A stretch of DNA of 24,510 bases from a virus: the UHGV virus genome UHGV-0063983. The stretch is one strand, 5' to 3'. The translations under genes and the position numbers were made by a program. The notes beneath the pieces are model-generated. The model had not been told where the DNA came from, did no database searches, and worked only from the letters and a program-made list of their open reading frames with translations. Within the stretch, counting starts at the first letter, position 1. Each line of letters begins with the position of its first letter. Positions 2,139 through 11,508 of the stretch are shown here, in pieces.

Positions 2139-2714
2139 CTATTTAACATACTTGACTGTTAAACTTATAATTTTACCAATTATTTCAATGTCTTCTATCT
2201 TACATTCGAAGGCTCTGTTTCCACCCTCGACGAAGATTCTTCCACCGGGTAAACGAGTAATGTCACGGATCGTTACTTCGCCATCAATACTTATTACCCA
2301 TTTACCATCACGTATATCATCAAATTCTTTATCACAAATAAATTCAGAATTGTTATCTGTGATGACAAAAGGTTTTTTAAACGTAGAGGGTAAAAATCCC
2401 TTATCAAAAATATAAAAACCGTCTTCACGCAAGGCACCATCAGATAATACATATTTAGCAACTTCCATAGTATTTGTATTACCTGAAGTTTGCTTTGAAC
2501 CATGTCCGGTTGTGAGCCAATTAAGCGAGGTGCCCGTTTCAAGGGCGCACTGGATTACCCATTCTGCTGGGAATGAGTCACGCATGTAGCGTGTGGCGAG
2601 TGTACTTTTAGAGATTCCTAAATGATCGCACAACGCCTGTCGAGTTTTGAATCCATAAGCTTCTACCATGCGCTCTATAGCGCCTCGTCCGCCTTTCTCC
2701 AAATTCATGGTCAC
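2139..2714 (-). CDS. cI: 186-type CI immunity repressor
   Basis: 191 aa with N-terminal helix-turn-helix (AYGFKTRQALCDHLGISKSTLATRYMR... CALETGTSLNWLTTGHG), matching the size and organisation of phage 186 CI; located between int and apl on the leftward strand. Confidence 0.85.
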   Translation of the reverse strand: MTMNLEKGGRGAIERMVEAYGFKTRQALCDHLGISKSTLATRYMRDSFPAEWVIQCALETGTSLNWLTTGHGSKQTSGNTNTMEVAKYVLSDGALREDGFYIFDKGFLPSTFKKPFVITDNNSEFICDKEFDDIRDGKWVISIDGEVTIRDITRLPGGRIFVEGGNRAFECKIEDIEIIGKIISLTVKYVK

Positions 2715-8153: not shown

Positions 8154-8245
8154 TTACGCGGGTTAACAATTCGTGCTCTTAATAATACCAGGCATATCAG
8201 GCTGATGAACGTAAAAAAACGTTTTACATCAGTAAGATTATTATA

Positions 8246-8265
8246 TACTGTAAATATAAACAGTG
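8246..8265. promoter_or_regulatory. LexA (SOS) box overlapping a putative promoter -10
   Basis: taCTGTaaatataaACAGtg fits the CTGT-N8-ACAG LexA consensus with an AT-rich spacer; overlaps a TATACT -10-like hexamer (8244-8249), about 40 nt upstream of the small ORF at 8307. Confidence 0.6.
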
Positions 8266-8306
8266 GTTATGTATACAGTGTTGCTTGTGGTGTCATAGGA
8301 GGAAAG

Positions 8307-8495
8307 ATGCAGGACTATTTTTTGGAGTCTTTGAAGCTCCAGCGCATTGATTTTTTTCTTAAGCTTGTAGCGGCCAGTGAGTGTAGTGATGAAGAGAAGA
8401 GACTGGCTATCCAGTGGGTTTCTGAGCTGACTGACGAGTTGATGGCGAAAATTCGTAACTATGAATACAGCCGTACAATGGACGCTACCAGCTAG
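8307..8495 (+). CDS. Small hypothetical protein (62 aa) downstream of the LexA box; possible N-terminal part of a Tum-like antirepressor
   Basis: ATG at 8307 preceded by AGGAGG. The ORF-track start at 8205 is an upstream extension that would overlap the LexA box. Confidence 0.4.
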   Translation: MQDYFLESLKLQRIDFFLKLVAASECSDEEKRLAIQWVSELTDELMAKIRNYEYSRTMDATS

Positions 8496-8505
8496 GGGAA
8501 AACCT

Positions 8506-8691
8506 ATGCGCATTGAAACAATGATCGATAAAGAGCAGTAAATTAGCTAGGCGCTGTTAGAAGCCGTTGAATCCGAGCTTTACCGCAACCTGCAGCCTAT
8601 CTATCCAAAGACAGCAATCCGCATTCGTAAAGGTTCGGCAAACGGCGTTGAGCTGAGCGGCTTAAAACTTGATGAAGACAAAAGCGAGTGA
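8506..8691 (+). pseudogene. DinI-family gene disrupted by two in-frame stops
   Basis: Frame from ATG 8506 reads MRIETMIDKEQ*IS*ALLEAVESELYRNLQPIYPKTAIRIRKGSANGVELSGLKLDEDKSE. The MRIE start and the ELxRxxQ / VxxR pattern resemble DinI (MRIEVTIAKT...AGELSRRIQYAF...VSVRY...). TAA and TAG interrupt at codons 12 and 15. Confidence 0.5.
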
Positions 8692-8758
8692 TGGAAATCA
8701 TGCAGCATGTTTGGGAAGATGAGAGCTGCTTTTAAATATCGATTTAGGGGAAAATCTC

Positions 8759-8784
8759 AACCTCATGCAGTATCGCATGAGGTT
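8759..8784 (+). terminator. Perfect 10-bp hairpin, possible terminator or regulatory element between the SOS module and the cargo operon
   Basis: aacctcatgc-agtatc-gcatgaggtt: exact inverted repeat with a 6-nt loop; the downstream T-run is weak (cattta). Confidence 0.3.
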
Positions 8785-8951
8785 CATTTAGGCGAAATTT
8801 GTGGGAATTTTCTACAAGTTTATGAGCGAATAATTCATTTTTGATGTGTTAATTTCTTAACAATTTGGGCTTTAATTCTTGTAAAGCAAGACATAACGTT
8901 TATGATTGATAAATATAAAAAATCTGAATAGGCAGGAAAGGAGTTTAACTC

Positions 8952-9467
8952 ATGCCTGGGTTAGAAAATGCACAGCAAAATCAAGTTGATGAAATCGTTC
9001 CAGCAATGCAAATCGCATTGGTCGAAGAAGATATAGAACAACCCATCGCTGCCGAATACCTATACAGCCAGCATATAAGTGCGCTTGTGCCACAATGCCC
9101 TCCTGCCGAAGCGACAGAGTGCGATAGAGAATGCTGGCGTTTTACACTGAATCCTATAAGTCACAACTGCTTTTGGCCTCCAAAAAGAAGATCACCGCAG
9201 CGAATTGCTTCCGACGATGCGGAGGAGTGTTCTATGTGGGCGTTGTCTATGTATGAATCAGAGGCCCAGGCTACAAGAGCCTATACCATGTTAGCGAAGA
9301 AGATGAAAAATATCAGAAAAGCTATTGGTGATCACCTTGCTGTGGGTTCAGTAACCTGTAGTGATGGTAAATGTATGCCTGCTAGCAGAACCGGTCACTT
9401 TGATTTTCATCCTTATGTGGATGCGGATTTCGTTAACGGGTTCCAAGTAATACGAGCATTACCATGA
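8952..9467 (+). CDS. Hypothetical protein, 171 aa (first gene of the accessory operon)
   Basis: ATG at 8952 preceded by AGGAGT at good spacing; AT-rich coding region; no motif I recognise; stop overlaps the next gene start (ATGA). Confidence 0.65.
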   Translation: MPGLENAQQNQVDEIVPAMQIALVEEDIEQPIAAEYLYSQHISALVPQCPPAEATECDRECWRFTLNPISHNCFWPPKRRSPQRIASDDAEECSMWALSMYESEAQATRAYTMLAKKMKNIRKAIGDHLAVGSVTCSDGKCMPASRTGHFDFHPYVDADFVNGFQVIRALP

Positions 9468-10555
9468 TAAAATTAGATGCTAGAAGAATAAATGCGTCAA
9501 CTGTCGGAGATTATTCTTGGTACTCTGACCTCGTATATTTCGATGGTCCCCTAATTTGCTTGTTTAGAGGAAGCGGATATAAAGATGCTCTTTATGTCTG
9601 GCTTGATAATTCGGAGCGTGCCAATCGTTGGTGCTTGATTCCAGTATCAAGATCTACTTTGGACTCTTATCTTAACCAAAGAATGAGTTTAAGGGAGATT
9701 ATACAATCGAGCGAATATACATATATCTGCGATCATTTTGCGAAAACCGGAAGGAAGCACTACAACATTTTGCACGTTGATAGTTTTCCTGAGGAGTATA
9801 TGCCTGATGAAGATTCATATTTGTATGAAGAAATATGTACTGATGATGCATTGCTGTTGAAGCAGGAGCGCACCTCCAGTTATATGCTTGGATTAGATAA
9901 TCAGTTGTTTATAAATGATTTATCTGTAATACCAAAAATTTTCGAACAGCTCTATTCTTTCCATTACGGATTGGCTCATTTAGGACGGTTGTCGATTAGA
10001 AATACCATGTTGCGTCTGATGGGGAATTGGACGGGTGGAATATCAGCAGTAAATATATTTTCAGGGTTGAAAAATGTTATTCCTGTTTTGCATCGACCAG
10101 AGATTAGCTCTCTCCAATACAATTCACCGGGGCATATTGAGTTAAATTTACTTCCTGATTTGGCTCAAAGTGTTCAAGATGCATCTATTCGTGTGAAAAG
10201 TGAGCTAGTTTATGACCGTCTGGAGAAAATGTATAAAAATACATATGCATACTTCAAGGATAATGGGCTGTCAGGCTTTGATGAAGACGGCGGCATTGAA
10301 ATTAGAAATATCGATAGTGATACCACCGAAAACCTACGTAAACGCGTAAGAATATTTTTTAGATGTTTGGGGTGGTCAAGTTATCAAGCTCAGTTTGATC
10401 TGATCGGTGCCCATCCTCTACAACAATTACGTGCTGTGATGGCCTACTACAGGCGGCTCAAAATCTTGCGTGAATACATTGTCTCCGAGAAGCTTTTTGT
10501 TGGTCAGTCTCGGGTGTTACAGCAGCCACAAATTGCTCTGCCTCCTGAGGATTAG
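9464..10555 (+). CDS. Hypothetical protein, 363 aa (second gene of the accessory operon)
   Basis: Long intact ORF, translationally coupled to the upstream gene; AT-rich; no Walker A or other obvious nuclease or ATPase motif found by eye. Confidence 0.7.
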   Translation: MIKLDARRINASTVGDYSWYSDLVYFDGPLICLFRGSGYKDALYVWLDNSERANRWCLIPVSRSTLDSYLNQRMSLREIIQSSEYTYICDHFAKTGRKHYNILHVDSFPEEYMPDEDSYLYEEICTDDALLLKQERTSSYMLGLDNQLFINDLSVIPKIFEQLYSFHYGLAHLGRLSIRNTMLRLMGNWTGGISAVNIFSGLKNVIPVLHRPEISSLQYNSPGHIELNLLPDLAQSVQDASIRVKSELVYDRLEKMYKNTYAYFKDNGLSGFDEDGGIEIRNIDSDTTENLRKRVRIFFRCLGWSSYQAQFDLIGAHPLQQLRAVMAYYRRLKILREYIVSEKLFVGQSRVLQQPQIALPPED

Positions 10556-10809: not shown

Positions 10810-11508
10810 ATGGTTATGTTAGTGGATGACTGTCCACGATGTGGATCACAAAAAATAGCGTTTGATGTTAATGGGCTGAATTGCACTAGGGTTTACAATG
10901 CATTGGGCGGGGGTAAAACATACGAATACGAGGTCTATTGTGTTTGCCGAGAGTGTCATAAAACGACAATGTTTCTTTGCAGACCTTTAACGAAAAATAA
11001 AACTTTAGATGGCTATAATTGGGAAAGTGGAATATTCGGCTTAAAGGAAGTTGCAGAGGTTGTTAGGCCTATATCACCGGCAGACTTAGCAGTAGAGGAG
11101 CCGCCAGAGTTCTTACCTGAGCATATCAATAGTGCATATGAGGAAGGGGCGAAATGTTTGGCTATTGGTTGTTATAATGCAGCAGCAACCATGTTTAGGC
11201 TTTGCCTTGATTATGCAACAAAAGGACTTCTTCCTGATGGGGAGCAAGGGCCTGCGCAAAAAATAAGGAGAAGCCTAGGGTTAAGAATGGATTGGTTATT
11301 TGATAATCATCTATTGCCTGAAGCTTTAAGGGAACTAGCTGAATGCGTTAAAGATGACGGAAATGATGGAGCGCATGAAGGTATTTTGGATAAAGCTGCT
11401 GCTGAGGATCTTGAAGATTTTACCTATCTTTTTTTAGAACGGCTTTACACTGAACCTCAACGCCTTATCGAAGCCAAGACAAGGCGTGAACAAAGAAGAA
11501 ACAAATAA
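10810..11508 (+). CDS. Zinc-ribbon protein with C-terminal DUF4145-like helical domain (232 aa)
   Basis: N-terminal CPRCGSQK...CVCRECHK (CxxC...CxxC zinc ribbon). C-terminal region (AAATMFRLCLDYATKGLL...LRELAECVKDDGNDGAHEGILD) resembles the [RK]-x2-GN-x2-AH signature I associate with DUF4145. GGGAGGA ribosome-binding site; AT-rich. Confidence 0.65.
   Translation: MVMLVDDCPRCGSQKIAFDVNGLNCTRVYNALGGGKTYEYEVYCVCRECHKTTMFLCRPLTKNKTLDGYNWESGIFGLKEVAEVVRPISPADLAVEEPPEFLPEHINSAYEEGAKCLAIGCYNAAATMFRLCLDYATKGLLPDGEQGPAQKIRRSLGLRMDWLFDNHLLPEALRELAECVKDDGNDGAHEGILDKAAAEDLEDFTYLFLERLYTEPQRLIEAKTRREQRRNK

Follow-up and report, generated by a model that had tools for sequence, protein, structure and literature searches.

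Has a P2-family prophage lost its SOS switch when the DinI-like gene of its SOS operon is broken? The question is raised by a 797-bp region of the virus genome UHGV-0063983, which lies within a stretch of 24,510 nucleotides that we analysed as a whole and refer to here as the window. The original prediction had read this region as a tum-type induction module inactivated by a frameshift and nonsense mutations, with loss of SOS inducibility as a possible step towards domestication of a prophage that retains its cargo genes. We examined the operator, the two reading frames and their relatives in other phages and bacterial strains. The coordinates of the features are collected in Table 1.

The gene content of the window, with an integrase, a 186-type CI repressor, Apl, CII, Fil, Dam and A followed by late genes, is that of a 186/Fels-2-like P2-family prophage. 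The gene A product is 98% identical to Cartapus gpA. The SOS module begins directly after the gene A stop codon, the placement expected of a tum-type module in a phage with 186-type CI, Apl and CII. All other window genes that we compared with annotated relatives are full length; this check covered the early genes, A, and the genes for portal, terminase, capsid, lysis, baseplate and tail fibre, and ~10 kb at the end of the prophage lie beyond the window.

Table 1. Positions in the window of the SOS module and of the phage genes associated with it
Feature	Position	Strand	Detail or basis
186-type CI repressor, presumed antirepressor target	2142-2714	-	Pfam Phage_CI_repr 2.8e-33, Phage_CI_C 5.4e-29
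Replication endonuclease gene A, 804 aa	5739-8153	+	ORF list; PGAP 'replication endonuclease' in identical DG342-2 region
-35-like hexamer TTTACA of p95-type promoter, A tract upstream	8223-8228	+	AAAAA..TTTAC block conserved in 36 species-level loci
LexA box 1 (distal) TACTGTAAATATAAACAGTG; left arm TACTGT (8246-8251) is also the putative -10 hexamer	8246-8265	+	
LexA box 2 (proximal) CAGTGGTTATGTATACAGTG, core GTGG-N8-ACAG	8261-8280	+	Near base-for-base alignment to colicin operators
Shine-Dalgarno AGGAGG of the 62-aa ORF	8297-8302	+	Direct reading; GGAGG before ATG conserved in relatives
tumA-type gene, 62 aa, intact	8307-8495	+	ATG 8307, stop 8493-8495
tumB/DinI-like pseudogene	8506-8735	+	Alignment to intact Cartapus gene; PGAP pseudogene in identical DNA
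Perfect 10-bp hairpin AACCTCATGC / GCATGAGGTT, 6-nt loop, weak T tract	8759-8784	+	

Upstream of the first gene of the module is a candidate promoter overlapped by a LexA operator. The distal box, TACTGTAAATATAAACAGTG, differs at three positions from the 20-mer LexA consensus TACTGTATATATATACAGTA and has the core CTGT-N8-ACAG at 8248-8263. Sites of this kind occur once in the 24.5-kb window and not at all in 100 shuffles. The -35-like hexamer and the TACTGT hexamer are separated by a 17-bp spacer, an architecture that matches the annotated p95 promoter of 186; p95 also lies after gene A, is repressed by LexA, and has as its -10 hexamer the TACTGT that forms the left arm of the LexA site. The promoter/terminator scanner that we used did not call the p95-type promoter of the window, in which TACTGT agrees with TATAAT at only 3/6 positions, and the real 186 p95 would also fail the rule of the scanner for the same reason. 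The box overlapping a -10-like hexamer, the 62-aa ORF downstream of it and a following DinI-family frame with TAA and TAG at codons 12 and 15 had all been pointed out in the original prediction, and each of these was confirmed.

The operator extends beyond this site to a second, proximal LexA box (CAGTGGTTATGTATACAGTG), which the original prediction did not contain. Its core (8263-8278) overlaps that of box 1 by one base, and the centres of the two boxes are 15 bp apart. When 8240-8285 was searched by BLAST against plasmids, small Col plasmids were matched, and the operator as a whole (8246-8280) resembles at nearly every base AAACTGTATATAAAACCAGTGGTTATGTGTACAGTATT of colicin N (cna) and of a Klebsiella colicin-like bacteriocin gene. 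The cna-type operator and that of the window both consist of the cores CTGT-N8-[AC]CAG and GTGG-N8-ACAG with one base in common, so that the window carries, at the sequence level, the two 16-bp cores with one shared base of a colicin-type double overlapping SOS operator. At colicin genes, two LexA dimers bind cooperatively (PMC2994835), and by analogy the operator of the window may be occupied by two LexA dimers as well. The colicin operators precede a bacteriocin gene, whereas that of the window precedes a homologue of a phage antirepressor. Only one LexA site is annotated in 186, and an alignment of 186 and PSP3 shows a single box, in contrast to the two seen here.

We compared this control region among 36 loci from different species, which included Enterobacter, Citrobacter, Kluyvera, Serratia, Pantoea, Erwinia, Tatumella and others. 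The motif CTGT-N8-[AC]CAG stands upstream of the homologous ORF in 32 of the 36 loci, and in 22 of the 36 a second ACAG follows exactly 15 nt 3' of the first. The elements retained in the resulting phylogenetic footprint are the A tract with TTTAC, TATACTGTA, AAACAGTG, a second TATACAGT that is part of box 2, and GGAGG, whereas the intervening spacers vary. LexA is predicted to bind at 8246-8280.

The family to which the 62-aa ORF belongs (phrog_698) is labelled 'hypothetical protein' in every database. The ORF product is 85.5% identical to Fels-2 STM2728, 87% to Cartapus gp44 and 89% to the SopEPhi orthologue. Pairwise BLASTP gave no alignment of the 62-aa protein with either 186 Tum or PSP3 TumA, and PSP3 TumA and 186 Tum also failed to align with each other. 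We therefore used profiles, because pairwise searching is too weak for these short, fast-evolving proteins. The ORF matches phrog_698 (2.4e-35), phrog_8554 (8.7e-8) and phrog_1993 (4e-3), and residues 1-61 of 186 Tum match the same families (phrog_1993, 1e-22; phrog_8554, 1.4e-11; phrog_698, 2.4e-5) in the same register. A family profile was also derived from an exhaustive HMMER search, in which the 85 cluster representatives were nearly all small stand-alone proteins. Compared by hhalign with the N-terminal 68 residues of 186-type Tum, this profile gave a probability of 95% (P 3.7e-8), with columns 4-44 aligned on 4-44. The family and the Tum N-terminus have in common a loop cysteine followed by the motif [LI]A[LI]xW/L[VI][SA]E[LI]. 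PSP3 TumA and the 62-aa protein gave a P of 0.013 in a direct hhalign comparison and are linked only through the N-terminus of 186 Tum. No DinI fusion was found among the 85 representatives, so that there is no fused-gene link inside the family itself.

Other searches with the 62-aa protein gave only a sub-threshold chance match in Pfam, and nothing from PADLOC or from a PDB sequence search. An AlphaFold2 model of the protein is a helical hairpin (mean pLDDT 88.5), for which Foldseek against BFVD returned generic helical hairpins only, none at E <= 0.001. The protein is acidic (pI 4.6), as are the Tum N-terminus and TumA. From the profile matches we conclude that the 62-aa ORF represents a stand-alone, TumA-type homologue of the non-DinI half of 186 Tum, and its product is presumed to be an antirepressor.

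The ORF is under strong purifying selection, with a median pairwise dN/dS of 0.06 at a mean dS of 1.2, and it is intact in 34 of the 36 species-level loci. At one of the two loci with a broken ORF (L042) the LexA box is degenerate as well, and this joint degradation is what real decay of the module looks like. Some gene callers extend the ORF of the window to 96 aa (8205-8495). We rejected this extended form, which starts upstream of the promoter and whose frame is broken in Cartapus by a 1-bp indel.

How the two reading frames relate to tum becomes clear from other phages. In 186, Tum is a single 146-aa polypeptide, with internal starts that also give the DinI-like part alone; its N-terminal half is homologous to the 62-aa ORF and its C-terminal half is DinI-like and 43% identical to the Cartapus protein. 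In Fels-2 (STM2728 / STM2726.1), PSP3 (tumA / tumB) and Cartapus (gp44 / gp45), by contrast, there are two separate genes 10-13 nt apart, and in Fels-2 and PSP3 this arrangement has been described as tum split into two halves (PMC3121763). The tumA gene of PSP3 is annotated 'similar to 5' end 186 tum; UV induction of prophage' and has a LexA box ahead of it. PSP3 tumB is DinI-like, and its product has 92% identity with the DinI-like protein of Cartapus, which corresponds in intact form to the pseudogene in the window. Antirepressor activity in PSP3 is attributed to the upstream gene on the basis of a personal communication, cited second-hand (PMC3121763). The modules of Fels-2 and Cartapus (Felsduovirus/Elveevirus) also follow gene A; their LexA box 1 is identical to that of the window, the rest of their promoter-operator region differs from it by a few bases, and their first gene is 85-87% identical. 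Their DinI-like gene is intact and encodes 77 aa, whereas that of the window is interrupted by two stops and a frameshift and is altered at its 3' end. Between the CI of the window and the CI proteins of Fels-2 and Cartapus, identity is only 38-41%.

The DinI-like frame of the window begins with an ATG ten bases past the 62-aa ORF, in another frame. We mapped its lesions by alignment to the intact 77-aa Cartapus orthologue, which matches the DinI family PF06183 at 2e-24 and to which codons 1-59 of the pseudogene are 88% identical. Codon 12 has changed from AAG to TAA (8539-8541) and codon 15 from CAG to TAG (8548-8550). In addition, the A run at 8680-8683 has four A where intact relatives have five, which is a -1 frameshift, and the replacements I5T, L21V, D73E and W75C (the last at 8729) fall at positions that are invariant in 19 intact homologues. 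Neither the frameshift at 8680-8683 nor these replacements were included in the original prediction. The uninterrupted ORF of ~77-81 aa ending in a C-terminal acidic helix (WEDxSW) that characterizes the DinI family (PF06183) is thus lacking, and PGAP labels the gene as 'frameshifted; internal stop'. The DinI-like partner expected downstream in a tum-type module is present here, as a genuine pseudogene.

Beyond the pseudogene, the hairpin listed in Table 1 could be the equivalent of t95a, the partial terminator annotated after tum in 186, and could mark the end of the module. The promoter/terminator scanner did not call this hairpin, and Rfam searches found no family anywhere in the window. 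A repeat search returned short two-copy matches only, among them a 13-nt repeat on either side of the pseudogene, which is no more than expected by chance.

The module itself occurs in about 1,100 E. coli genomes, and strains carrying the dead allele come from Germany, Mali, Viet Nam and Hong Kong. Over the 797 bp, identity is 100% for the chicken isolates DG341-351, 99.6% for 200088, a human isolate from Mali, and 98.6% for four further strains. The TAA, the TAG and the frameshift are all present in DG342-2 and 200088. In 13C1079T and EC20-4B-2, the two of the four 98.6% strains that we examined, the TAA and the frameshift are present and codon 15 is still CAG. The allele occurs with two CI types that are only 55% identical to each other, and the TAG variant occurs with both, which means that the block recombined between prophages of different immunity after the last lesion had arisen. 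In the four strains in which the downstream regions were examined (DG342-2, 13C1079T, 200088 and EC20-4B-2), the dead allele is linked to the PD-T4-10 A/B defence gene pair. The cargo downstream of tum in 186 is orf97.

We then asked how often the DinI partner is lost. Among the 36 species-level loci, a sample ascertained on the 62-aa ORF and hence biased towards intact tumA, the DinI-like gene is intact in 16, broken by stops or frameshifts in 4 and missing in 16. Where it is missing, the 62-aa ORF is usually followed directly by a GC-rich hairpin, and DinI remnants are present in 2 of these loci. A second survey was ascertained on the C-terminus of gene A and comprised 80 IMG/VR loci, 78 of them usable. 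Both genes are intact in 71 of these, tumA is intact with DinI broken or absent in 4, and tumA is itself broken or absent in 3. Among these close E. coli relatives, loss of either gene is therefore rare, with no significant asymmetry, and tumA-only modules with LexA boxes are common across genera. DinI loss is recurrent and is compatible with long-term maintenance of tumA.

The Gifsy prophages offer a parallel. Their dinI-gfoA/gftA operons combine a LexA-controlled DinI homologue and a small antirepressor, a pairing comparable to that in the window, and non-polar deletions of dinI are without significant effect on induction (PMC3121763). One SNP in the promoter ahead of dinI-gfoA is enough to abolish induction. 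Gifsy has the reverse gene order, with dinI first, so that a dinI nonsense mutation could be polar there; in the window the tumA-type gene comes first and the DinI-like gene second, and the nonsense codons are for this reason not polar on tumA. The repressors and antirepressors of Gifsy have no sequence relation to those of the window.

These comparisons lead us to favour, as the likely explanation, a Fels-2/186-type P2-family SOS operon in the split tumA/tumB form, which has retained its antirepressor switch and has a dead DinI-like partner. In an undamaged cell, LexA on the double operator (8246-8280) would cover the -10 hexamer and the transcription start region and keep the operon off. After DNA damage, RecA-stimulated self-cleavage of LexA would free the p95-type promoter, and the acidic helical-hairpin protein of 62 aa would then be made. 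Homology to the N-terminal half of Tum and the analogy with PSP3 TumA suggest that this protein would bind the 186-type CI and stop it from binding DNA, so that lytic development would start. Where the second gene is an intact member of the DinI family, its product could modulate RecA and the SOS response. Loss of the DinI-like gene is probably not fatal to inducibility, because this gene comes after the antirepressor gene and related prophages often lack it, and the loss probably alters at most the strength or timing of induction. The DinI-like gene may thus be dispensable in this phage, and the prophage has probably not lost its SOS switch.

Could the lesions be artefacts, or could they have brought down the whole module? 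A change in the length of an A run is a typical sequencing error, yet at least six strains, sequenced independently in different studies and countries, share the same TAA and four-A run, and the TAG is confined to a subset of strains. This nested pattern indicates descent and not sequencing error, and the additional non-conservative substitutions at invariant residues fit relaxed selection; that the stops and the frameshift are sequencing or assembly errors in an intact DinI-like gene is hardly conceivable. The idea that the entire tum-type module has been inactivated by nonsense and frameshift mutations, with the SOS response lost and the prophage domesticated around its retained cargo, has more in its favour. 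The DinI-like half is certainly dead and has suffered further damaging substitutions, the 186 antirepressor is one protein that includes the DinI-like domain, and in every strain whose downstream region was examined the dead allele is linked to PD-T4-10 as defence cargo. We nevertheless regard this idea as distinctly unlikely. The two-gene layout is ancestral in the lineage, so that the separate frames, which the original prediction had taken for a frameshift lesion of a fused tum, are the normal state in Fels-2, PSP3 and Cartapus. The tumA-type gene, its promoter, its operator and its ribosome-binding site are all intact, purifying selection acts on the gene, and the stops in the downstream gene are not polar on it. 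In other genera, tumA-only modules are common and have kept their LexA boxes. None of the other window genes that were checked is truncated, and recombination has carried the allele into prophages that differ in immunity type. What stands of the original prediction is a LexA-controlled tum-type module whose DinI-like gene is dead; its further step, loss of SOS inducibility on the way to domestication, finds no support, since both the antirepressor-type gene and the region controlling it are intact and conserved.

A different objection is that the 62-aa protein is SOS-regulated and has some other role in DNA damage, with induction of the prophage proceeding through another factor. This is consistent with the 'hypothetical protein' label and with the lack of pairwise BLASTP similarity to Tum or TumA. 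It is also consistent with the relation between the 62-aa protein and its presumed target. The co-variation of tumA type and CI expected of a specific antirepressor was not found (Spearman 0.31), and one identical allele of the 62-aa protein, at 56 loci, is found with 14 CI clusters whose mutual identity is <70%. Furthermore, Cartapus, which has an intact module, is not among the LF82 prophages reported to be induced by ciprofloxacin. Against the objection stand the profile-profile homology to the N-terminal half of Tum with its PHROG cross-matches, a position and regulation identical to those of tum and tumA, the treatment of the Fels-2 pair as a split tum (PMC3121763), and an N-terminal domain of CI that is conserved enough to be a shared target. 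On balance, we consider a role other than antirepression unlikely. The missing co-variation, unexpected for a specific repressor binder, and the absence of Cartapus from the ciprofloxacin-induced prophages also count against a retained antirepressor switch, the reading that we prefer. So do three further points: the two halves form one polypeptide in 186, and the DinI-like domain might aid antirepression in some lineages; the claim for the PSP3 antirepressor is second-hand; and in the gene A survey loss of tumA (3/78) is about as rare as loss of DinI alone (4/78).

With a retained switch as the preferred reading, the pairing of one tumA allele with many repressors suggests a possible target. 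The N-terminal domain of CI is more conserved than the C-terminal domain, with a mean top-residue frequency of ~0.7 versus 0.43-0.56, and this DNA-binding domain could be the common target of the 62-aa protein. An extended proposal, which we put forward only tentatively and hold to be rather doubtful, is that the TumA-type protein is a generalist antirepressor of many divergent 186-type CI repressors, probably acting through their N-terminal domain. P2-family prophages of different immunity, whether already resident together or newly incoming, would then be co-induced, loss of DinI would be tolerated or favoured, and the double operator would delay induction until damage is severe.

In summary, modules of this kind are already known from Fels-2 and PSP3, and RefSeq already flags the pseudogene. 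A broken DinI-like gene at this place in a P2-family prophage should not be equated with a lost SOS switch, since it is the small gene upstream to which antirepression is attributed. The 62-aa family phrog_698 can be annotated as TumA-type and homologous to the N-terminus of Tum. The double colicin-like operator and the lack of co-variation between tumA and CI bear on co-induction across immunity types and are modest leads.

The two LexA boxes upstream of the 62-aa TumA-type gene, a presumed antirepressor, overlap and on their sequence together form a predicted double SOS operator of the colicin type. Both the layout and the sequence of this operator are nearly identical to those of the cna (colicin N) operator. 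By contrast, one LexA site is annotated in phage 186, and the alignment of 186 with PSP3 likewise has a single site.

Features of the SOS module, the repressor gene and the adjacent cargo in the window
Feature	Coordinates	Remarks
LexA box 1	8246-8265	
LexA box 2	8261-8280	overlaps box 1
TumA-type gene	8307-8495	62 aa
CI repressor gene	2142-2714 (-)	
PD-T4-10 protein A (predicted)	8952-9467	PADLOC match 9.8e-76
PD-T4-10 protein B (predicted)	9464-10555	PADLOC match 2e-172
DUF4145 protein	10810-11508	weak PD-T7-4 match; next after the PD-T4-10 pair

Some gene callers report the TumA-type gene as a 96-aa version (proteins P0001-P0004) that begins at the ATG at 8205 (8205-8495). We rejected this form, as its start lies upstream of both the promoter and the LexA boxes and its frame is broken by a 1-bp indel in Cartapus, a relative with an intact DinI-like gene. 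The conserved form of the ORF is the one of 62 aa. It is frameshifted in Siccibacter turicensis (L042), in which the LexA box is also degenerate, and is damaged at three further loci (L041, L089 and L123). These four loci exemplify real decay of an antirepressor-type gene.

The neighbouring DinI-like gene has been lost in more than one way. Two loci scored as lacking DinI carry short remnants of it downstream of the 62-aa ORF: L026 has a stretch similar to KTAIRIRKG, and L035 has a tail that reads QQVWKDNS. DinI has therefore been lost by deletion as well as through point lesions. In the window, the DinI-like pseudogene is flanked on both sides by a 13-nt direct repeat, TAGGGGAAAA(C/T)CT (8493-8505 and 8745-8757). 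This repeat could delimit a DinI cassette, but it may be meaningless, given that the rough chance expectation for such 13-nt repeats here is about 0.2.

Across loci L009-L124 we found no co-variation between the TumA-type gene and CI. A single identical 62-aa allele, present at 56 loci, is paired with 14 CI clusters, between which identity is below 70%. Within CI, conservation is clearly higher in the N-terminal HTH domain than in the C-terminal one.

The window is a mosaic that none of 5,426 complete E. coli genomes contains in this form; the top match among them has a coverage of 91% and an identity of 96%. The DG34x strains carry a 100% identical 797-bp module and a CI that is only 55% identical to that of the window; the CI of strain 200088 is 98% identical to the window's. 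Between their integrase and CI genes, relatives have a further cargo slot (DG342-2, L001 1292-2968; EC20-4B-2, L288 1-433). This slot encodes either a protein with a SNIPE-associated domain or one with DUF4041; in the window it is an empty 240-bp gap (1899-2139).

The cargo directly 3' of the SOS module is identified by its PADLOC matches as the predicted anti-phage system PD-T4-10. Its two genes and that for the DUF4145 protein are housed in a variable slot that extends from the tum module to the portal gene. In the examined relatives with the dead-DinI allele, in which the DinI-like gene has one or two internal stops and a frameshift, the PD-T4-10 pair is retained while the next gene varies; its products include an AIPR-family protein and an unrelated hypothetical protein.
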